64,000 nt of DNA from Candidatus Woesearchaeota archaeon (GCA_016188155.1 JACPIH010000002.1:68655-132654), one strand, 5' to 3'; positions 2,944 through 55,723 are shown, counted from the stretch's first letter. The notes: a model not told the origin generated them from the letters alone. Numbers and translations are program-made.

Positions 2944-3120
2944 ATGCCCATGATTTTTGGACTAACAAGACAGTGTAGGGGAATAAAAGCAGAAATAGAT
3001 GCTGCAATAAGCGATACATTGGAGAAAGGCAGGTTCATTCTTGGGGAAAAGGTTGGGCAGTTTGAAAGGGCATTTGCAAAATACTGCAGGGCAAAACGCA
3101 GTTTTCAGCCAGCTGATTGA
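2944..3120 (+). pseudogene. 5' fragment of a DegT/DnrJ/EryC1/StrS-family aminotransferase gene (first about 55 codons, then premature stop)
   Basis: MPMIFGLTRQCRGIKAEIDAAISDTLEKGRFILGEKVGQFERAFAKYCRAK matches conserved DegT N-terminus; frame ends at TGA 3118-3120 before the PLP-binding core; downstream sequence is unrelated. Confidence 0.6.
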
Positions 3121-3347
3121 CACGAACAACATAACAGGCCTTGATATTGGCTTTGACAAGGCCTACTATGAGCAGCAGGCCTGGCAGCACCTCTACACGT
3201 TCTACTATTCTGGAAACTACTATTACACTGTTTACGGCGGCGTTGAGATGACACTGTGAAAATTTTGAAATCACCGACGGAAAAACTACGGGATTTGACA
3301 GAAAGGTTTAAATAACATCAAATATCGGCACCGACTGGGGTTAAAAA

Positions 3348-4013
3348 GTGGGAAAAAGGGGTTCATTTGCTATTAAGAAGAACAAGGTAGTTGTCCTATT
3401 TTTAGTTTTGTTATTCACCTCCTCACTTAGTTACCTTATTTTTGCTAATGCTGCCGAAGTTCAAGAAATTGTCAAGAGTGTGATTAATGGCAATTCCGCA
3501 AGTGTAGAAGCCAGTCCAGCACATATAAATTATGAGGAGAGTATGAAAAATTTCAGAGGTGCTCTTCTATCTTTAAATGTAACAAGTTCACACAGCTTTG
3601 AAAAAACAGTTGATTCTGAAAAACACGAGCTTTCAGTAGAGCTTATCGAACCTGTAACAAGACAAGGGGCTCATTTGAAAGTAAACAACGAGAATGTTTT
3701 TCTTCCATCTGGCGGTACCAGTTATATAGATGGTTGGCTTATCAGGAACAGGGGAAATATCAAAGATCCAAATGGCATAATCAGTTCAAACATAGATTCT
3801 TTTTACATAGGCACCGATGGCGACTGCAGCCTTGCAGACCATTACGAATGCATTGATGGGAATTTGCACTGGTTTTATTGCAATGGCACGGACTATGGCA
3901 TGGTGGAAGAGTGCGATTCGTGCCAAGATAATGAATGTGTAAAAAAAGGAACTTTTGCCCGCTGGGAGCGAATAAAGGTACTTAGGCAAAATGTTAGTGT
4001 TGCAAGTGAATAA
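3348..4013 (+). CDS. secreted/membrane-anchored Cys-rich hypothetical protein (GTG start)
   Basis: N-terminal hydrophobic signal/anchor (VVVLFLVLLFTSSLSYLIFANA); Cys-rich C-terminus; 2-nt gap to next gene. Confidence 0.5.
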   Translation: MGKRGSFAIKKNKVVVLFLVLLFTSSLSYLIFANAAEVQEIVKSVINGNSASVEASPAHINYEESMKNFRGALLSLNVTSSHSFEKTVDSEKHELSVELIEPVTRQGAHLKVNNENVFLPSGGTSYIDGWLIRNRGNIKDPNGIISSNIDSFYIGTDGDCSLADHYECIDGNLHWFYCNGTDYGMVEECDSCQDNECVKKGTFARWERIKVLRQNVSVASE

Positions 4014-4015
4014 AT

Positions 4016-7000
4016 ATGAACAAGAATTTATTGGTAATTTTGGCAATCATTTTAGCTGCAGTTCTGTTACCGATATTGGTTGAAGCTTTGCCAGTGATAG
4101 ATTCTGATGAGAGTTGGAACGTTAATGGCGGGACTATATTTGACAATGTTATCTGGACTGATGATAACATAGACTTCGAAGTAAATGGGATTAATGATGG
4201 CTCAGCAGACTTTGTTTGTGTGGATTGGAACAACGATGGAACTTTCGATAATTGCTATTACGATTCTAATGGCTGTACTTCAAGTTGCGGGGTAAATGAT
4301 TGCGATTTTTTCCCTATTCCTCAAAACATGAATGATGCCAATAAGGAAAGTTGCGATATTGAAGGAAGCTGTAAGGAAGGAGTTGACGTTGCACAAAGAG
4401 TATGTGATGGGTGTAGTGCGGTAGACACGTCCAATATTCAGAACACATACGTCAATGCTACTGTATACTACGATTGTGATAACTCGCAGAGTAACAGGCA
4501 CTCAGATTCACTGGCTAAGGTTGGTTTTTGGGTCATCAATCCCCAAAAGTTTGATTGTGATGCTGACGGTACCGAGGAAGCCGACAATTATAAGGCTGGT
4601 ACAGCTTATTACGACCTTGAAGGAAAGAACGGTAGCGGCAGCACGGATTGGAAAAACGTAAAAAGCGATTTAGGGTGCCCAGCATACAGGATTTGTGATC
4701 CTACCAGCAGCCATACAAATCATGATGATGAAGAAGTTACAACGAGAACAGGGATAATTCTGTCACCTTGCTCGCTTGAAGATGGCTCGACACTAAATCA
4801 CGTCTGCACTCAAAACGCCGATTGCTATTCCGGAAACTGCGGCGGCTGGGCTACTGATGAGAAACATGTATGCGTAACGGATGGAAGCAACAATTACTAC
4901 CAACAGTTTAAGTATACCAACAGGACTTGCGGAGGAGCAGGCTATACTGATGGCATATTTTATACTAATGCCACGCTTTCGTGCGCTGTAAAGGCAGGAC
5001 CAAGCTACGTCTGTGACTCAGACCATGATGAAAATGTCACAACAAACCCAACCACTCCTGCTTTACCATGCAAAAAAGCAGTTGGCCAACCTTGCTCCCA
5101 AGACAGCGACTGCTGGAACGACGATGGTGGTGTCTTATGCACATCAGGTTATTGCAAAGGGCTGCCAACTTACTGCACTGGCTCGATAGAAGTTCTTACC
5201 GAGGACAGCAGCGGCGCGCCCCTTTCCGGCTTAAGCGTTTACTGGAACGCTACATACAACGGCACCACGGATAGTCTTGGGCAAAGGATACTAAACCTTA
5301 ACGTCACATGCGGCTCTGACCAGAACGTTACGGTAAAGTGCTCCAATAACAGCACTGTTTGCGATACCAAGCTGACACAGATTGACAGCAGCGGCGACAT
5401 AGACTTCCTGTACTTTGAGTGCACAAAGTGCAGCCCGAAGAAGGACCTTTACGTTACGCAAAGTGATGTTTACGTTAACATAACAAGTAAGAGTGTGAAC
5501 GTTACAGTTCATTCTTCCAGCATAACGTCTAATGTGCAAGTTACGGTTTATAGACTGGACGAAGAAGGTGTCACAAAGGAAAGCAGTTCAACAACTATAT
5601 CACTGACTGCGGGTTCAGAAAAGAATGCCTCATTCACTTTAAGCAGTATCGCATCAACTGATTTCCTGCACATATACGTGGACTCCAATAACGCAGTAAA
5701 AGAGGACGACGAGACAAACAACTACGTTTTCAGGGCGGCAGTAAAACCGATTAAGGCCTATATTGACGTTAAGCTTGACCCTTCTTTCTCCATTCTGAAC
5801 GAGCTGGTAAAGGAATACATTGGCACTTTCGTGGAACCTTCAAGTTCTTCCCAAGCAGATGTCATAATCATTGTCGGGCACCCAAAAGTGTCCAATTCTG
5901 AGCCGTTCAATATAACTGGCACAATTATTGGCGGCGGTAAATCCATGCAGAAAGCATACGCTGGAGTTGTTAAAAAGGCTCCGGATTTTGTGAATAGTTA
6001 TTCTGGGAAGCCTGAAATATTAGTGTACGGCAACCAAATCCAGGGCGATATCGCTGCTGTGAAGCGCTTAATCAGTGCCAGAAGCATCTTTTTGGATAAA
6101 GGAACAAGCAGCAAATCGTATACCGTTTTTATTGATGACTACGACTCGTTAGGTATTTCCGTGATGGACCTTATGAGTAGGAACGAGACTAAAAAGCACA
6201 TGAAAAACAACAACATTACGTTAGCTAACGATGTTAGGAAGATTCTTTATGATAACAATTTTGAGGTTGCCGTGAAGCCTGTGAAGACGCTGAGCACCAC
6301 TTCGTATGGTAATTCGAGCATATTACGGGTCAAGAATGTAAATACTGATTTTTCTGTAAGTTATAAAGATGCTGTTGGTATCAGTAACTTTCCAGTAGTT
6401 TTTAGCGGTGGACTTTTTAGCCATTTAACTGCATGGGAAGGCAATGGTAAAGGGTTAGCCAAACAGATGGCCGGGGAAGGTTGGGACGTATGGGAAATAG
6501 AAATGACAGGAGGTCCCGATACCGATTGTAGTGTTTCAGATGTTGACACTTGTCCTAATTACGCTTACAGCGATTTGACAACGTACTTTTGGCCTGCACT
6601 AATTGCTGGAATTCAAAAATACTCGGGAAAAGGTCAGGTTGATTATGTGGGGCATAGTAATGGCTGCTTGGCGGCGCTAAGTGCGTTGAATAATTATTCC
6701 TTGTCTGGTAAAAATAATACTGGCTACTACTTTAACTATAACACGGGACAGTACTTATTCGTGAATCTCTCCTCAAACCCTGTGAGGAAGTTTGTAGGAG
6801 TGGCATGCCCCTCAGTTTTAGACGACAGCACAGCATATACGACTCTGGCAAGATTAAACAGCAAGTTTGGTAGTGGAACAGCCGGCGATGTGGCTATGAA
6901 TAAACTCGCTGGCAAAAAGCACGTAACAATGGGACAATACGCACAATACCTCGTTCCTAGCACACCCACCAAACTTGACGACTACGCCAGTTTCATACTA

Positions 7001-7300
7001 GCATTTGCAGGCGGGAAAAAAATCTCCTACAACCTTATGGACTTCTACAATGATTTGGCGGTAAGTAATTCAGATTCTATAAATTTGAGCGGACTAAACG
7101 TAAGCAAACTTTACCTGTTGGCAACAAATCCGGACGATTTCATAGTGTCCTACGACGATCAGCTTGAAATAAATGGTAGCGCTACAGCTCTAACAGCACC
7201 TAATAAAGAGATAATAACCTATCAGGGCATAACATTTAATCATATAGCGATTAAAGATAGGCCGACAGTAAAAGAAAAAATAAAAGAGAAATTAAAATGA
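4016..7300 (+). CDS. giant secreted surface protein with Cys-rich N-terminal region, CARDB-like domain(s) and a C-terminal alpha/beta-hydrolase (lipase/esterase-like, GHSNG) module
   Basis: Signal peptide; numerous N-X-S/T sequons; E..DETNN CARDB-like motif (DDETNNYVF); GHSNGC nucleophile-elbow-like motif (VDYVGHSNGCLAAL), later DDFIV and FNHIA (candidate Asp/His). Confidence 0.6.
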   Translation: MNKNLLVILAIILAAVLLPILVEALPVIDSDESWNVNGGTIFDNVIWTDDNIDFEVNGINDGSADFVCVDWNNDGTFDNCYYDSNGCTSSCGVNDCDFFPIPQNMNDANKESCDIEGSCKEGVDVAQRVCDGCSAVDTSNIQNTYVNATVYYDCDNSQSNRHSDSLAKVGFWVINPQKFDCDADGTEEADNYKAGTAYYDLEGKNGSGSTDWKNVKSDLGCPAYRICDPTSSHTNHDDEEVTTRTGIILSPCSLEDGSTLNHVCTQNADCYSGNCGGWATDEKHVCVTDGSNNYYQQFKYTNRTCGGAGYTDGIFYTNATLSCAVKAGPSYVCDSDHDENVTTNPTTPALPCKKAVGQPCSQDSDCWNDDGGVLCTSGYCKGLPTYCTGSIEVLTEDSSGAPLSGLSVYWNATYNGTTDSLGQRILNLNVTCGSDQNVTVKCSNNSTVCDTKLTQIDSSGDIDFLYFECTKCSPKKDLYVTQSDVYVNITSKSVNVTVHSSSITSNVQVTVYRLDEEGVTKESSSTTISLTAGSEKNASFTLSSIASTDFLHIYVDSNNAVKEDDETNNYVFRAAVKPIKAYIDVKLDPSFSILNELVKEYIGTFVEPSSSSQADVIIIVGHPKVSNSEPFNITGTIIGGGKSMQKAYAGVVKKAPDFVNSYSGKPEILVYGNQIQGDIAAVKRLISARSIFLDKGTSSKSYTVFIDDYDSLGISVMDLMSRNETKKHMKNNNITLANDVRKILYDNNFEVAVKPVKTLSTTSYGNSSILRVKNVNTDFSVSYKDAVGISNFPVVFSGGLFSHLTAWEGNGKGLAKQMAGEGWDVWEIEMTGGPDTDCSVSDVDTCPNYAYSDLTTYFWPALIAGIQKYSGKGQVDYVGHSNGCLAALSALNNYSLSGKNNTGYYFNYNTGQYLFVNLSSNPVRKFVGVACPSVLDDSTAYTTLARLNSKFGSGTAGDVAMNKLAGKKHVTMGQYAQYLVPSTPTKLDDYASFILAFAGGKKISYNLMDFYNDLAVSNSDSINLSGLNVSKLYLLATNPDDFIVSYDDQLEINGSATALTAPNKEIITYQGITFNHIAIKDRPTVKEKIKEKLK

Positions 7301-7896
7301 AAATTACTAAAAATCATTTACTCACAGCATTACATCTGTTACTAGCTACGATAACTGGTGGCTTTTTTGCCGGACTGCAATCTATTATACACCCAAGTGA
7401 CGCAACAATTTTTGCTCCGATATATTTTATTGCACTAAATTCGTTATTGTTTACGCCAGCCATACTTTTTTCACTTTTTTATATTTTTATGGCAAGTAAA
7501 ATTTTAAAAAACGATTTTAAACCTTCACGTGGTTTGTGGACTGGAACGATTGCTGGATTACTGTTGGCAAGCGTATTATTGACGTATTTATTAAACGTTG
7601 AAATAACAGAATCCTATAAAGTTGAAGGTGGCGCTATAAATGAAGATTTTAAAGGTACGGCCACAGGATTAGAAAAATTGTCATTAACTTCATTCTATTC
7701 ATTTTTGATTTTATTTTCTATCCTTACTCCACTAATAGATTTTTTCGATTTTAAAAGAAGAAAAACAAGAATTGACACAAAAAATTTCTTTTTACTTTTA
7801 GGATTGTCTATTGGTTATTATGTTCTGATTTTCCTTTGGAGAATTGTATTATTTTATGCCGTTAACATATTTTTATTTTTCGCATTATGGAGCTAA
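7297..7896 (+). CDS. small polytopic membrane protein (candidate immunity/partner protein of upstream hydrolase module)
   Basis: 199 aa, 5-6 predicted TM helices, very AT-rich; start overlaps upstream stop (ATGA). Confidence 0.5.
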   Translation: MKITKNHLLTALHLLLATITGGFFAGLQSIIHPSDATIFAPIYFIALNSLLFTPAILFSLFYIFMASKILKNDFKPSRGLWTGTIAGLLLASVLLTYLLNVEITESYKVEGGAINEDFKGTATGLEKLSLTSFYSFLILFSILTPLIDFFDFKRRKTRIDTKNFFLLLGLSIGYYVLIFLWRIVLFYAVNIFLFFALWS

Positions 7897-9140
7897 AAAT
7901 GATTCGAAAACAATTAGCTGCTGTGAAGCGTTTAATCAGCGCACGAAATATCTTTTTGGATAAAGGGACTGGCAGTAAGTCGTACACGGTGTATATTGAT
8001 GATTTTGATTCTCTTGGTATTTCTGTGATGGATTTGATGAGTAGGAATGAGACTAAGCTGCATCTTAAAAACAACAACATTACATTAGCCAATGACGTTA
8101 GGAAAATCCTGTTTGACAACAACTTTGAAGTGGCTGTAAAGCCTGTGAAGACGCTGAGCACAACTTCTTATAACAATTATTCGATTTTAAGAGTAAAGAA
8201 TGTTAATTCTGATTTTTCTGTAAGTTATAAAGATGCTGTTGGTATCAGTAACTTTCCAGTCGTGTTTAGCGGTGGACTTTTTAGTAACTTGATTGCTTGG
8301 GAAGGTGATAATGGTAAGGGTTTAGCCAAGCAAATGGCTGGTGAGGGCTGGGATGTCTGGGAGATTGAAATTACTGGAGGGCCTGAAACTGATTGCAGTA
8401 GTTCAGAAATAGATACTTGTCCTAACTATACGTACAGCGACTTAACCGACTTCTACTGGCCAGCTTCGATTGCAGGGGTTCAAAAATATTCAGGAAAAAA
8501 TCAGATTGACTATGTGGGGCATAGTAATGGTTGTAGGGCAGCTTTAAGCTCACTAAATAGCTACTCTACTTCCGGTAAGAATAATTCAGGTTATTATTTT
8601 AATTACAACACGGGGCAGTATTTTCTCGTAAATCTGTCTACAAATCCCGTCAGGAAGTTTATCGGCGTCGCGTGCCCAACAACTTTAAATGACGTATCGG
8701 ATATCTCTGTGATAGCCAGAGAATTAAAGGGAGGGGTATCAAAAGGAGACCTAGCAATAAGAGCTCTTTATAATGATAAAATTCAGCATATAAAACGCCA
8801 ATCTTATGCTGGGAGGTTGGATGCAAAAGCCTGGTTTGTAGCAAGAAGTGATTACAAAATATCTACTGCTTTGATGAAGTTTTATAATGACATAAGCATC
8901 GAGACAAATACACAATTCGCTGTTTCACCAAATATTGCTAACAGAACATATTTATTTGCCGGAACAGAAGGCTATTTTGGTTTAAAACATTACGAAGGAG
9001 ATGGAGTTGTGCCTCTGAGTGATATGCTTATGCTCAACAATTCCTTAGATAATTCTGTTTTATATCTTATTAAAGAAAATCATGGCGGGATACTATCCAA
9101 TCCATTATTTATTGGCACTATCAAGGAGGCTGTAAAATGA
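7887..9140 (+). CDS. orphan alpha/beta-hydrolase (GHSNG) cassette, paralog of C-terminal module of 4016..7300, no signal peptide
   Basis: Roughly 80-85 percent nt identity to 6040..6800 with perfect tracts; GHSNGCRAAL, GDGVVP, ENHGG motifs (Ser-Asp-His order); overlaps upstream gene by 10 nt. Confidence 0.55.
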   Translation: MELKMIRKQLAAVKRLISARNIFLDKGTGSKSYTVYIDDFDSLGISVMDLMSRNETKLHLKNNNITLANDVRKILFDNNFEVAVKPVKTLSTTSYNNYSILRVKNVNSDFSVSYKDAVGISNFPVVFSGGLFSNLIAWEGDNGKGLAKQMAGEGWDVWEIEITGGPETDCSSSEIDTCPNYTYSDLTDFYWPASIAGVQKYSGKNQIDYVGHSNGCRAALSSLNSYSTSGKNNSGYYFNYNTGQYFLVNLSTNPVRKFIGVACPTTLNDVSDISVIARELKGGVSKGDLAIRALYNDKIQHIKRQSYAGRLDAKAWFVARSDYKISTALMKFYNDISIETNTQFAVSPNIANRTYLFAGTEGYFGLKHYEGDGVVPLSDMLMLNNSLDNSVLYLIKENHGGILSNPLFIGTIKEAVK

Positions 9141-9553
9141 ACAAGAAACTAATTTACAGAATACTGATAAATAACTTTTTGTTTATATTTTTTGAGATTA
9201 TCTTTTTGGGTTTGATATTGTTGGGTGTTTTTGATGGTTTGATGCCTTCAAATTATGGAGCCTGGATATCCTACGAGGGTTATGGAGTAGTAATCGCAGG
9301 AACTATGGCGGTTATAATCTGCTCCTACGTCTTAGCATATAAAAGATATAACAGTTCAGATACTACGCTTAAGTCTCTTATGAAATATTATAACCTATCC
9401 TTTATTTTAATGATGATCTTTTTGATAAAACTGTTAACTTTGCCTGCCTTTTCACCAGTCATGATTATTGCGTCGCTTTTTGCATTTTTCTTTTTGCTAA
9501 GTTTTTTTGCTTCAATACTGCATCGGATACAAAGCAGAGGTTCAGAAAAATGA
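9137..9553 (+). CDS. small polytopic membrane protein (second candidate immunity/partner protein)
   Basis: 138 aa, about 4 TM helices; ATGA overlap with upstream and downstream genes. Confidence 0.5.
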   Translation: MNKKLIYRILINNFLFIFFEIIFLGLILLGVFDGLMPSNYGAWISYEGYGVVIAGTMAVIICSYVLAYKRYNSSDTTLKSLMKYYNLSFILMMIFLIKLLTLPAFSPVMIIASLFAFFFLLSFFASILHRIQSRGSEK

Positions 9554-10284
9554 GCCAGAAACAATTTATTATAAAACAGATGGCAAAGTTTGTTCAAAAT
9601 AGCTTACTTAGAGCATCCAATGCTAACGTCATAATCATTGTCGGGCACCCAAGGGTATCTAACTCTGAGCCGTTCAATATCACAGGAACAATCCGTAGTG
9701 GAGTAAAATCAATGCTGAAGCCTTATGCTGGAGTTGTTAAAAAGGCCACAGATTTTGTGAACAGCTACTCAGGAAAACCAGAAATTTTAGCGTATGGTAA
9801 TGGTATTCAGGGTGATGTGGCTGCAGTTAAACGCCTTATTAACGCTCGCAGTATTTTCTTGGATAAGGGCACTAACAGCAAATCGTATACCGTTTTTATT
9901 GATGACTACGACTCGTTAGGTATTTCCGTGATGGACTTAATGACGAGGAATGAGACTAAGCTGCATTTGAAGAATAATAATATCACGCTCGCGAATGACG
10001 TTAGGAAGATTCTTTTTGACAACAACTTCGAAGTGGCGGTAAAGCCTGTAAAAACTCTTAGCACAACTTCTTATGGTAATTCAACCATTTTGAGAGTTAA
10101 GAATGTCAACAGTGACTTTAGCAGAGGCTATAGGGATGTTGCCGGTATAAGTGATAAGCCTGTAGTTTTGTCAAGAGGTATTCACAGTAATCTCTTCAGC
10201 TGGCAGGATTTTGCAAGAGAATTGACCGGCGAGGGTTTTGACGCGTGGCTCATTGAAAGTGCAGCAGGGGCAGAGAATGACTAA
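9550..10284 (+). CDS. truncated orphan cassette homologous to the region upstream of the hydrolase core (possible pseudogene/donor cassette)
   Basis: ANVIIIVGHPRVSNSEPFNITGTI… aligns with 5860..6500 of the large gene (61-nt perfect tract); diverges and stops before the GHSNG segment. Confidence 0.45.
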   Translation: MSQKQFIIKQMAKFVQNSLLRASNANVIIIVGHPRVSNSEPFNITGTIRSGVKSMLKPYAGVVKKATDFVNSYSGKPEILAYGNGIQGDVAAVKRLINARSIFLDKGTNSKSYTVFIDDYDSLGISVMDLMTRNETKLHLKNNNITLANDVRKILFDNNFEVAVKPVKTLSTTSYGNSTILRVKNVNSDFSRGYRDVAGISDKPVVLSRGIHSNLFSWQDFARELTGEGFDAWLIESAAGAEND

Positions 10285-12601
10285 GGAACTTATAGAAAAA
10301 ATGTTCGTGTACCTGATTTGCCTGCTTGCAGGCTCATCTGCCGTGTTAGCTGCGAATATGACAGTTGACAAGCTTATCGATTCTTACGACTACGATTTCG
10401 ATACGGGCGTTATTAATGTAACCACATTTAGCGATTATATGATAGACCAGAACAGCAACGGGTTGAACGATACGCTTGTAATCAACTTGACTACTAATGC
10501 CTTGAACAGTTCGACGTACCTATTCATAGTGAGTCTGAATGAGAAAACAGGCTTACTGAAAAATTATACAAATGCTACTGTTAATTCCACTAGCCAGAGT
10601 GCACTAGTACTTTTTGACACCAAACTATTGAACCTTAACCAGTACAATTATTCGGTTGAAGTGCGAGGCCAAGATTACGGGCTGGTTTTCACAAAATACA
10701 AGGTCCAGACAAACAGTTATCAAAGTTATGAAAAAGGAGTTAACATAACTTTAATATCAGATGCTGCTGTTAACAATAACCTGCTCAGGATTACATTGAG
10801 CTTGAACGTCACAGAAAATAAGACCACGAGCATTACGGTTTATTTGAAGTACAATAATCAGAGCATTTCTTCCACAAAGGAAGTTACTTTAACAACGCCA
10901 TCGCAAATGGTCGATGTTGACTTTGATAATGAAACGATTAAATCAATTCACTATGTTGGCAATTACAGCATAGGAGAAGTAAAGATTGGAGAGAAATTAC
11001 TCGCTGTTAGTTATAATACGTCCTCTTACAACTATGCTGATTTTGCTAAGAGTTCTTACATCAAAAGCGTCGTAAGCGGAGCTTTTGACAATAACTCAAA
11101 CAACCTTTCAGATGCGTTGCAGGTGAATTTCACATTGAATGTTACAGAGGCGGGGGATTTCACTTTAGAGGCGCCTCTTTACACAGCCGAAGGAGAGTAT
11201 GTGACGGCAATTGCCAAGAACGTCACACTGAGCGCTGGCTTGCAGACTGTAATCACAGAAGTAGCTGGAAAGAACATATATTTGACTTACTACAATGGAG
11301 TTTTTGAGCTTTCATTTGCAAAATTGTCTTCAGGAAATAACACGAGGGATATACTTTATGATGCGCATGCGACTAATTCGACTTTTTATACTGACTTTGA
11401 AAGGCCGTCATTGCCTGACCTGAAAGTCAATATCTCAATAAATTTTTCCTCGGTTACTAACGTTACAAATATTACTGTAAACCTTAGCAATATTGGAAAT
11501 GCTCCAGCATTCAACATAATGATTAATGTTTTGGACAATGTTAGTTATGAAAATGAGTCATCGCTTTCTTACTTGAATTTAAGCGATTCTCAAGTTTTTT
11601 ACTTCACAGCCCAAAATACAACGAATGACTCGCTTTTTATAGCCATAGCTGATTTTGAAAATCTTGTTGATGAGAGTAATGAATCAAATAATTTCATTGA
11701 TACATCTCCACCACCGCCACTGCCCGTAGTTTCGCTCAAAATTGTCAGTTTATCTCAGCTTTACTCCTTAGCAACCCACAAAGTGTTCGAATTTGTTATT
11801 GAGAATAACGGCTCATCTGCAGTTAACAATGTTACTTGGAAGCTCAACCTCGGGGATGGCACCGTTATAAACAGCACCCGGAATACAAGTCTGGCCATAA
11901 ATGAAACAATACGTGTACATTTCGAATACAATTACAGTTCCGAAAGCGATTACACCGTTACAGCTAACGCTACCGCTATTGCTGAGGGCGTAACGGCCAC
12001 TAAGACACTGGTTATTAGTTCGGCTGGCACGCTTTCCCTCAGCAACTTAAAAGTGCTTTATTCTAATTTATCGGAAAGAGTGTTCGAGTTTACCATTAAC
12101 AACAGCGGCGATAACAACCTTAGCGCTAATTGGACACTCAACTTGGGAGACGGCAATGTCGTAAGTAGCACGCAAAATGCTAACCTTAACTCCAGCAAAT
12201 CCTTGCTAGTGTACGTTCAGCATGATTATTCCGCCCAAGGCGACTACTCGGTTACCGCTACTGCGCAGGGCGGCGGTCTTACGGCATCTTCCAGTATTCC
12301 TGCAGAAGTTGAGTATCTTGGAGTTAGCAACTTTTCCGTTATTAACAGCAGCGGCTCTTTGAGAACATTTGAGGCTTACGTCAAGAACTACATGGCAGTC
12401 GCAATGTCTAACGTAAGCTGGAGCCTCAATACAGGCAATGGCATTGTGAGCAGCACATCGCCAATTACCCTACAGCCTCAGGAAACCGCTTTTGTTTTTG
12501 CAAAATACAACTATACAGCAACTGGCACTTTTGCTGCCAATTTCACAGCTGTCAACAGCTCATGGAATGATTTGGAAGCATTGAACGTCACAATCACGTA
12601 A
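10277..12601 (+). CDS. secreted CARDB-repeat surface protein, heavily N-glycosylation-sequon-rich
   Basis: Signal peptide MTKELIEKMFVYLICLLAGSSAVLA; FENLVDESNESNNF CARDB signature; about 4 internal roughly 90-aa repeats (…NLGDGTVINST…DYTVTA…); dozens of N-X-S/T. Confidence 0.55.
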   Translation: MTKELIEKMFVYLICLLAGSSAVLAANMTVDKLIDSYDYDFDTGVINVTTFSDYMIDQNSNGLNDTLVINLTTNALNSSTYLFIVSLNEKTGLLKNYTNATVNSTSQSALVLFDTKLLNLNQYNYSVEVRGQDYGLVFTKYKVQTNSYQSYEKGVNITLISDAAVNNNLLRITLSLNVTENKTTSITVYLKYNNQSISSTKEVTLTTPSQMVDVDFDNETIKSIHYVGNYSIGEVKIGEKLLAVSYNTSSYNYADFAKSSYIKSVVSGAFDNNSNNLSDALQVNFTLNVTEAGDFTLEAPLYTAEGEYVTAIAKNVTLSAGLQTVITEVAGKNIYLTYYNGVFELSFAKLSSGNNTRDILYDAHATNSTFYTDFERPSLPDLKVNISINFSSVTNVTNITVNLSNIGNAPAFNIMINVLDNVSYENESSLSYLNLSDSQVFYFTAQNTTNDSLFIAIADFENLVDESNESNNFIDTSPPPPLPVVSLKIVSLSQLYSLATHKVFEFVIENNGSSAVNNVTWKLNLGDGTVINSTRNTSLAINETIRVHFEYNYSSESDYTVTANATAIAEGVTATKTLVISSAGTLSLSNLKVLYSNLSERVFEFTINNSGDNNLSANWTLNLGDGNVVSSTQNANLNSSKSLLVYVQHDYSAQGDYSVTATAQGGGLTASSSIPAEVEYLGVSNFSVINSSGSLRTFEAYVKNYMAVAMSNVSWSLNTGNGIVSSTSPITLQPQETAFVFAKYNYTATGTFAANFTAVNSSWNDLEALNVTIT

Positions 12602-52561: not shown

Positions 52562-52684
52562 CGTCGTGAACGGCCATGGCCGCCCGGTAATACCTGATCC
52601 CATTTCGAACTCAGAAGTCAAGCGGGCGCACGTTCCTGCCAGTACTGCACGTCGTGCGGAAACGTAGGATCGCTGTTCACACTT
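52562..52684 (+). rRNA. rrf: 5S ribosomal RNA
   Basis: …CCCAUUUCGAACUCAGAAGUCAAGCGGGCGCACG… matches conserved 5S loop C/helix III core; 5' GUGAACGGC pairs with 3' GCUGUUCAC (helix I); TATA upstream, T5 tract downstream. Confidence 0.8.
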
Positions 52685-54988: not shown

Positions 54989-55690
54989 ATGGGGTTTTTG
55001 GGCTTCTTATTCGGCAGCAGCACGAAACCCAAGTCGACGGCGGTCGACTGGGCACAGTCGCGGCAGCGACTTGTGAGTGAGAAGAGCGTGCGGCAGGTGC
55101 AGCCATCGGAAATCTCACTTTCACCCTTTGCAGTCATAGAAGGCAAGGTAATATCCGCGTTCTCCAAGGTAAAGCAGGACATCACACTCGTAAGCTCCTG
55201 GCTCAAGTACCTCAGGCACAAGGACCTGCTGCATGAGCAAAGGCACACAAAAACGCACAGGGAGCTGGGGGAGCACAAAGTAAGGATTGAAAGGCTGCAA
55301 GCAGAAATGGTAGAGCTCAAAGCAGCCCTAAATGAGGCCAAAACTGCTGCCCAAACAGGTTCGTTTCCGAACCTAGTCCGGACTAAATCCGAACCTAAAG
55401 CGGACCTAAAACGAACCCAGTTTGAAAACAGGGTTGTAAGCACGCTTAGGAGCAGAAGAAAGGACTATGTTTTGAAGCAAATCCTTGAATTGGCAGCGAA
55501 AGAAACGCACTCAACAAGCGAAATAGAGCAAATTGTCGTCGGAGAAAAGGCTTTGTGCGGAAGGACCGCATTCTACGATTACATTCGCGAGCTTAAGCAC
55601 AAAAGGATGATAAGACCCAGTGAAAAGGGCTCGAAAAAGGTTGTTGTTGCCGAAAAAGCTGGTTTGGAGCAGGTTCGTTTCCGAACCTAA
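54989..55690 (+). CDS. coiled-coil protein with C-terminal winged-helix-like domain (putative DNA-binding/regulatory protein)
   Basis: 233 aa; central heptad-rich segment; C-terminal …YDYIRELKHKRMIRPSEKGSKK… wHTH-like; contains duplicated 44-bp element. Confidence 0.4.
   Translation: MGFLGFLFGSSTKPKSTAVDWAQSRQRLVSEKSVRQVQPSEISLSPFAVIEGKVISAFSKVKQDITLVSSWLKYLRHKDLLHEQRHTKTHRELGEHKVRIERLQAEMVELKAALNEAKTAAQTGSFPNLVRTKSEPKADLKRTQFENRVVSTLRSRRKDYVLKQILELAAKETHSTSEIEQIVVGEKALCGRTAFYDYIRELKHKRMIRPSEKGSKKVVVAEKAGLEQVRFRT
55356..55417 (+). repeat. copy 1 of about 44-bp palindrome-containing element (CAGGTTCGTTTCCGAACCTAgTCCGGACTAAATCCGAACCTA…)
   Basis: Near-identical to 55670..55723 (1 mismatch over about 44 nt); contains GGTTCG-TTTC-CGAACC hairpin and AGTCCGGACT palindrome. 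Confidence 0.6.
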
Positions 55691-55723
55691 TCCGGACTAA
55701 ATCCGAACCTAGTCCGGACCTAC
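55670..55723 (+). repeat. copy 2 of about 44-bp palindrome-containing element, spanning stop codon of 54989..55690 and convergent intergenic region
   Basis: See copy 1. Confidence 0.6.

Follow-up and report, generated by a model that had tools for sequence, protein, structure and literature searches.

Interparalog (ectopic) gene conversion in tandem gene families, as studied with Sawyer's GENECONV approach, is recognized by perfect tracts that are specific for one pair of paralogs and include silent sites, by incongruent segment trees and by junctions that lie in conserved blocks. Segmental gene conversion that draws on partial donor cassettes is known to underlie antigenic variation in pilE/pilS of Neisseria, vlsE of Borrelia and msp2 of Anaplasma. 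The only comparable archaeal module in the literature searched is VARTIG of the Thermococcales, where a large secreted Ig-like protein has a recombining variable C-terminal region and smaller genes located downstream match the C-terminal part of this protein in alignments, a layout noted by its authors to be polymorphic-toxin-like (Makarova et al., 2021; PMC8416519). VARTIG is defined by a large arCOG07710 protein of Thermococcales with a hypervariable Ig domain at its C-terminus, and its authors found no closely similar module outside the Thermococcales and reported no within-locus recombination (PMC8416519). Here, we analyze a surface-protein operon of the DPANN archaeon Candidatus Woesearchaeota that contains three copies (A, B, and C) of a predicted lipase-like alpha/beta-hydrolase module. 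The operon lies in a stretch of 64,000 nt, called the window hereafter, of a metagenome-assembled genome (GCA_016188155.1, JACPIH010000002.1:68655-132654), in which the locus in question spans positions 4,016-10,284.

The genes are arranged in the order A-M1-B-M2-C, and alignments show that the repeated module corresponds to positions 5846-7297 of gene A and to the whole of B (7887-9140) and C (9550-10284), whereas M1 and M2 encode polytopic membrane proteins. All of them are co-oriented, neighboring genes share 4-10 nt, and a scan of open reading frames (ORFs) revealed that three of the junctions consist of ATGA; A-M1-B-M2-C are presumably co-expressed as a single operon. We consider it very probable that the three copies have exchanged sequence by interparalog gene conversion, in the form of short patches and occasional module replacement among tandem paralogs that are old and selectively maintained.

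A perfect tract of 61 nt, which encodes SKSYTVFIDDYDSLGISVMD, is common to copy A (6109-6169, + strand) and copy C (9876-9936, + strand) and is bounded by mismatches directly on either side, exactly as a first-pass annotation of the window had described it. The same annotation had listed a perfect tract of 49 nt for copies A and B (6347-6395/8211-8259); a perfect tract is indeed present there, but its real length is 52 nt, from 6345 to 6396 in A and from 8209 to 8260 in B (both + strand). On the A side it lies at the start of the type-I-specific sequence, directly before the strand of the oxyanion loop. No exact direct repeats in the window are longer than these tracts of 61 and 52 nt, and the next ones, of 25 and 23 nt, likewise lie within the cassettes. 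An exact match of 25 nt connects 5861-5885 (+) to 9628-9652 of copy C and is located within a 45-nt window of 89% identity. Overall identities amount to 77% for A-B, 72.5% for A-C, and 70% for B-C, so that the background of 80-85% assumed by the first-pass annotation was too high. When identity was followed in sliding windows of 45 nt it was clearly non-uniform, with 96-100% in the tracts vs. 64-82% in their flanks, and the site patterns of the three window copies run from AC|B to BC|A and then to AB|C.

Could such tracts arise by chance, or does a constraint at the nucleotide level keep them identical, for instance a binding site, an overlapping element or a structure of the RNA? Permutation tests argue against chance, which they exclude for the A/C tract. 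Free shuffling of mismatches gave P<5e-5 for A/C and P=1e-4 for A/B, the latter measured against the average A-B divergence. The longest run of identical synonymous codons comprised 19-20 codons for A/C (P<2e-4; 0 in 5,000 permutations) and 17 codons for A/B (P=4e-4), and in the same permutation analysis the run of B and C was not significant. A GENECONV-like test following the logic of Sawyer, which the first-pass annotation had proposed as a check, gave a global P<=1e-4 for A/C as well as for A/B when the three window copies were used, and P=5e-4 (A/C) or P=2e-3 (A/B) when only third positions were considered. With nine sequences and 36 pairs, for which the copies of the window (wA, wB, wC) were combined with those of two related loci (L1A-L1C and L2A-L2C, see below), 35 concordant polymorphic sites were obtained for wA-wC with a global P<3e-4, and the A/B tract falls outside the region common to all nine sequences. 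The within-locus tract of L2A-L2B was significant in this nine-sequence test and in the synonymous-codon test, and the within-locus evidence for L1A-L1B was marginal (global P=0.033 with nine sequences). Constraint finds some favor in the A/B tract, which folds slightly better than its shuffled controls (z of -1.9 and -1.8, a weak signal) and is situated within a block conserved among all type-I sequences. The A/C tract, however, gave no folding signal (z of -0.3 and +0.4), a search of Rfam revealed no match in the cassette region, and identity is pair-specific, the third window copy differing at 26-29% of the positions of each tract, mostly silent ones. A constraint by RNA structure is not supported by fold z-scores and Rfam. 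Taken together, constraint or chance is a very unlikely cause of the tracts and is largely refuted for A/C.

Two syntenic loci, L001 (GCA_016180085.1) and L002 (GCA_053533775.1), show the same A-M-B-M-C layout and have flanking genes that are ~73-79% identical to those of the window. When the nine copies were aligned and compared by identity matrices and bootstrapped neighbor-joining trees, the nearest neighbor was found to switch every ~70 nt. Columns 113-165 of the alignment group wA with wC (83% bootstrap) and L2A with L2B (100%), columns 176-205 group wA with L1C (96%), and columns 206-228 unite wA, wC, and L1B (100%) and again L2A and L2B (99%). In columns 229-250 the pairs are wC with L1A (98%) and L2A with L2C (100%), in columns 286-345 wA, wB, and L2A form one clade (100%), and in columns 346-455 wA is joined to L2A (100%). 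Adjacent segments therefore give conflicting clades with bootstrap values of 83-100%, which supports the proposal of the first-pass annotation that the patchy identity reflects homologous exchange and not plain divergence. Individual blocks illustrate the same pattern: 6029-6075 (+) of copy A has an exact match of 47 nt in the C copy of L001 (L001 12173-12219), whereas 9931-10025 (+) of copy C is almost identical to copy A of L001 (exact runs of 35 and 54 nt vs. L001 8122-8216). Within L002, copies A and B share a near-identical stretch with exact runs of 47, 45, 41, and 32 nt. Also, two types of hydrolase can be distinguished, type I (GGLFS...GHSNGC) in wA, wB, and L2A and type II (SRGIHS...GFSLGC) in L1A, L1B, and L2B, with remnants of the latter in wC and L2C, and among the copies of the window, L001, and L002 the type is independent of the gene position. 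Gene A of the window and its L001 counterpart, for example, share 85% protein identity up to the pre-hydrolase region, where the hydrolase type switches and unrelated membrane proteins follow. The exchange pattern is broader than the three copies of the window, as the same blocks are found at position A, B, or C depending on the genome, and hydrolase types have been exchanged as a whole. Lateral transfer between species was considered for the tracts shared across genomes and is not claimed, because saturation is incomplete between orthologs of the window and L001 (identity of codons for the same amino acid of 0.48-0.70) and some of them contain long silent-identical runs.

Mechanistically, non-reciprocal short-patch homologous recombination between the tandem copies would overwrite blocks of ~50-90 nt, with patch junctions expected in blocks that are conserved in all copies, such as GGTATTTCCGTGATGGA. 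Several of the observed junctions coincide at this block, which encodes GISVMD and is conserved in all copies. The direct repeats in question are 1.9-3.8 kb apart, a distance over which RadA-type homologous recombination may have acted. For the 61-nt patch, copying from C to A would be most parsimonious, with C as donor and A as recipient, because L1B has a longer haplotype in common with wC (~85 nt, spanning the tract and reaching further 5') than with wA (the 61 nt only). A second conversion patch is probably represented by the 52-nt A/B tract. In all of this nothing essential differs from interparalog gene conversion as known from other tandem families, and the process itself is ordinary textbook recombination. 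The setting is different, in that the locus is an undescribed, recombination-prone surface-protein operon of a DPANN archaeon and its blocks are common to several genomes and positions, and a literature search yielded no relevant paper on such conversion in a DPANN surface-protein operon with cross-genome block sharing.

All pairs of copies, including those with the truncated copy C, are saturated at silent sites, with proportions of synonymous differences (pS) of 0.75-0.93 vs. proportions of nonsynonymous differences (pN) of 0.08-0.19. Saturated silent sites and low pN indicate that all copies are old and under purifying selection. As the tracts are free of substitutions in about 20 codons each, they appear, on this comparison of sequences, young relative to the very old, silent-saturated paralogs. 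Diversity-generating retroelements (DGRs), which have been reported from genomes of DPANN archaea and of the candidate phyla radiation, create variation by mutagenesis between template and variable repeats, and we attach next to no probability to such an origin: the copies are 0.7-1.5 kb long and not repeats of ~100 nt. A DGR is ruled out by the substitution spectrum, with 64-73% of the mismatches between copies at third codon positions, all four bases involved and no adenine specificity.

For a metagenome-assembled genome, one has to ask whether the mosaic was produced during assembly or binning, by chimeric joins or by consensus merging of paralogs or of co-occurring strains. L001 comes from an 'NC_groundwater' sample and may belong to the same study as the window. 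Exact-protein look-ups of M1 and M2 led to short Logan contigs from five Sequence Read Archive (SRA) runs, namely SRR12113383, SRR12113385, SRR12113420, SRR12113424, and SRR12113431. These independent assemblies are 100% identical to the window and together cover 6530-9905, a range to the right of both tracts of copy A and their contexts. The contigs extend over 6530-8238 (L010), 7012-8238 (L011), 7012-8063 (L012), 7012-8042 (L013), 8231-9905 (L014), and 8231-9890 (L015), and they include both junctions between unique flank and tract for copy B and the left junction for copy C. L010 and L011 stop at 8238, after the first 30 nt of the copy B tract, L014 and L015 begin at 8231, 30 nt before the end of the same tract, and L014 stops at 9905, after the first 30 nt of the copy C tract. 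Contigs that break 30 nt inside the tracts, as they would at true repeats in a de Bruijn graph of k=31 (the value that these breaks suggest), make an assembly artefact unlikely. Furthermore, a mis-join would give long switches and not a patch of 50-60 nt between flanks of 65-80% identity, and mosaics of the same kind are present in other independent assemblies, including a 1.54-Mb contig of a distant Woesearchaeota locus (L004). An artefact is thus highly improbable in our judgment, although three Logan contigs that share one start point hint at a graph branch. These three (L011, L012, and L013, from three runs) all begin exactly at 7012, in the hypervariable C-terminal part of gene A, and a fourth run reads through this position; the common start may correspond to a branch of the de Bruijn graph caused by a co-occurring variant upstream.

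Several observations weigh against gene conversion, or at least against extending it to every tract. Within the type-I trio wA/L2A/wB, the A/B tract contains only 5 polymorphic sites (pairwise P=0.06 in the GENECONV-like test that includes the closest ortholog), it sits where all type-I sequences are 86-93% similar, and the (wA,wB) clade over this block obtains 67% bootstrap. Local conservation could account for part of the A/B tract, and for these three reasons it is weaker evidence than the A/C tract. The segment boundaries used for the trees were picked post hoc. Long silent-identical runs also occur in orthologs of the window and L001 outside the cassettes. At 4016-5800 and 10238-12601 of the window, runs of identical synonymous codons shared with L001 comprise 32 codons (P<3e-4) and 22 codons (P=0.01), and orthologous surface-protein genes of the window and L001 have exact matches of up to 46-53 nt. 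Such runs in surface-protein orthologs mean that divergence is heterogeneous along the whole surface locus; this heterogeneity extends beyond the paralogs, and something other than conversion between them could explain why genomes have blocks in common. Finally, the first-pass annotation had spoken of ongoing gene conversion. Exchange between paralogs is supported by pair-specific silent identity, by incongruent trees and by the tract in L002, but the five runs contained no within-population variants and only a single haplotype over 6530-9905. Relatives closer than ~65-80% protein identity were found neither in the protein database nor among genome contigs or metagenome contigs nor by exact cluster look-up. 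With one haplotype and no closer relative in the databases searched, the qualifier 'ongoing' is unproven for this genome.

In three more distant Woesearchaeota loci (L004, L005, and L006; ~35-45% protein identity), a large secreted protein again ends in the module, its carrier part containing Peptidase_S8 in their case. Small ORFs and two additional copies, full or partial, lie downstream, with a CARDB/PKD protein after them in L006. Across distant Woesearchaeota, the layout of three copies is conserved, one full module being attached to a secreted carrier and two partial ones lying downstream, with variable membrane proteins interleaved. L004 (CP060218.1) and L005 (JACJVU010000001.1) belong to near-identical strains, whose flanks show 0 mismatches over 6.5 kb on one side and 5 in 5,610 nt on the other side. 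The strains differ only in a part of ~3 kb, at about 7100-10510 of L004 vs. about 9100-11984 of L005, where the downstream hydrolase copies have been replaced or rearranged. Copy 2 of L005 is a perfect chimera: 500 nt that match the 5' end region of copy 2 of L004 without a mismatch are followed by 600 nt that match the middle of copy 3 of L004, again without a mismatch, and by a different 3' end. Cassette replacement at the strain level was seen only in this distant pair. At least two matches were obtained with the first 590 aa of gene A as query, and this search led to L009, a relative of L002 (Logan ERR2108713), in which a C-like copy of 420 aa is encoded at 1712-2974. It is longer by ~230 aa at its 5' end, extending into the region of CARDB homology with gene A, and has the same 3' truncation point as L2C. 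Downstream copies that are 5'-truncated were thus found in the window (B and C), L001, L002, and L009, and partial copies in L004-L006.

These data raise the possibility of a dedicated cassette-exchange system, in which the hydrolase module of the secreted gene A would be re-assorted with the partial copies downstream and other strains as sources, each variable C-terminal half being paired with a cognate hypervariable membrane protein, and conversion would be the working mechanism and not a by-product. We judge this reading to be unlikely. It would fit with the export signal, which is present in A only, while B and C begin at internal points of the A sequence that differ in every genome, and with the recurrence of the three-copy layout behind Peptidase_S8 carriers. 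The change of hydrolase type after 85% identity between wA and L1A, the replacement that distinguishes L004 from L005, the C to A direction proposed for the 61-nt patch and the similar organization of VARTIG (PMC8416519) point the same way. Also, variability peaks in the C-terminal ~150 aa of the hydrolase (past the ACPxxLN motif) and in the downstream membrane proteins. In the window, L001, and L002, each full hydrolase is followed by a gene for such a membrane protein, if one counts an uncalled ORF of 185 aa that we noticed at L001 11515-12072 (+), directly after copy B of L001, and that encodes a polytopic membrane protein. On the other hand, pairing is not strict, as the hydrolases of L1A and L1B are 82% identical and their membrane partners only 25%. 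Strict covariation of the C-terminal half of the hydrolase with the membrane protein was tried as a rule; it holds for wA/L2A (66%) and fails for L1A/L1B (25%). B and C carry start codons and short overlaps with the genes upstream, so that they look expressed and not silent, and only one haplotype was found in the five runs. All C-terminal domains belong to one alpha/beta-hydrolase family, and the conserved synteny would fit a conserved surface complex equally well. A broader version, by analogy with described systems, is similarly doubtful: a cassette-exchange locus conserved in Woesearchaeota, operating via short-patch conversion and whole-module replacement, might be the DPANN counterpart of polymorphic toxin/immunity or VARTIG self/non-self modules and possibly act on host membranes.

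In its layout the locus resembles polymorphic-toxin or VARTIG loci. With polymorphic toxin systems that have orphan C-terminal (CT)/immunity cassettes (CdiA-CT/CdiI, Rhs, MafB; Zhang et al., 2012; PMC3482391), it has in common a secreted carrier with a conserved N-terminal part and a variable C-terminus, a small variable gene directly downstream of it, further copies behind that are 5'-truncated and retain the conserved pre-variable region, and strain differences by cassette replacement. It differs from them by its single hydrolase family in place of diverse toxin folds and by downstream copies that are apparently translated, and Pfam/NCBIfam scans detected no recognized pre-toxin or secretion motif and no toxin family above threshold, Tle3 being recorded with E=0.024. 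With VARTIG it shares a large secreted protein (here with a weak CARDB match), a variable C-terminus and partial genes downstream. In contrast to VARTIG, the variable part is an N-domain plus alpha/beta hydrolase and not Ig, polytopic membrane proteins are interleaved, and recombination was detected within the locus; with an alpha/beta hydrolase as variable module and a Woesearchaeota host genome, the locus is not a member of VARTIG. The likeness to antigenic variation systems consists of one full-length gene with export signal beside partial copies, of short mosaic segments bounded by conserved blocks and of a probable polarity from partial to full copy. In contrast to those systems, there are only two partial copies here, both with start codons and short upstream overlaps, and a single haplotype over 6530-9905.

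DPANN archaea are thought to live attached to hosts. For this reason, and because the lipase-like module is surface-associated and recombining, the locus is a candidate for host interaction or conflict. It is worth recording for its unannotated proteins, for a three-copy layout conserved across distant Woesearchaeota and for near-identical strains that differ only in this part of the locus.

The module consists of an N-domain of ~170 aa followed by the lipase-like alpha/beta hydrolase. An AlphaFold2 (AF2) model of copy B is confident over residues 82-417, with models reaching a predicted local distance difference test (pLDDT) score of 79, and Foldseek searches against the PDB gave lysosomal acid and gastric lipases and esterases as best matches (E~1e-9). 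G211, S213, and G215 of the GxSxG elbow are invariant in 33 homologs, and at least 90% of them retain D372, D379, and H399. The module is predicted to adopt the alpha/beta hydrolase fold, in which GxSxG forms the nucleophile elbow and Asp and His residues are conserved. Among the curated Pfam/NCBIfam families, none matched the module proteins above threshold; Abhydrolase_1 reached 15-21 bits (cut-off 25.8), Tle3 14.6 bits (cut-off 27), and PhaZ7 20 bits (cut-off 450).

Gene A (HYV83_00480; 4016-7300, +) encodes a protein of 1094 aa that is identical to NCBI protein MBI2549641.1. It starts with a hydrophobic N-terminal signal or anchor (segment 1-31), followed by a Cys-rich region and a weak CARDB domain (Pfam E=1.2e-4, just under the cut-off), and copy A (5846-7297, +), the N-domain plus type-I alpha/beta hydrolase (GHSNG) with an AF2 model of pLDDT 79, makes up its C-terminal half. 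M1 (HYV83_00485; 7297-7896, +), whose start overlaps the stop codon of gene A as ATGA, is a polytopic membrane protein of 199 aa with 5-6 hydrophobic segments and is 66% identical to its counterpart in L002. Copy B (HYV83_00490; 7887-9140, +; 417 aa), a stand-alone gene on an NCBI contig of 142,958 nt, has a 5'-truncated N-domain, a type-I hydrolase with a unique C-terminal part of ~150 aa and no signal peptide. M2 (HYV83_00495; 9137-9553, +), another polytopic membrane protein, of 138 aa, has ATGA overlaps at either end and an identity of only ~23% to M1. Copy C (HYV83_00500; 9550-10284, +) is an ORF of 244 aa with the full N-domain and the first ~80 aa of a type-II hydrolase, ending before the catalytic Ser, so that this copy is truncated at both ends, and its stop codon overlaps the start of the downstream gene. 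The NCBI annotation of copy C has 234 aa vs. the 244 aa of the ORF from ATG 9550, a start that creates the ATGA overlap with the stop codon of M2; the exact sequence of 244 aa is absent from the protein collection. The next gene, in the same apparent operon, encodes a CARDB/PKD surface protein with signal peptide (10277-12601, +); its ORF was listed from TTG 10238, and judged by the sequence ATG 10277 is the likelier start.

Elsewhere in the window, a 5S rRNA gene was detected at 52566-52681 (66.6 bits), and no tRNA or other rRNA genes were detected within the 64 kb. Two near-identical blocks of ~40 nt, composed of CCGAACCTA- and CCGGAC-like units, lie 314 nt apart at 55356-55397 and 55670-55711; they have no Rfam match and flank part of an ORF of 233 aa. 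The surface-protein operon (3000-12000) itself forms an island of low G+C content (33-46%, lowest at 7-10 kb) between flanks of ~50%, which encode functions of glycan biosynthesis, namely sugar-nucleotide epimerases, GT4 glycosyltransferases, a nucleoside triphosphate (NTP) transferase and a flippase-like polysaccharide synthase.

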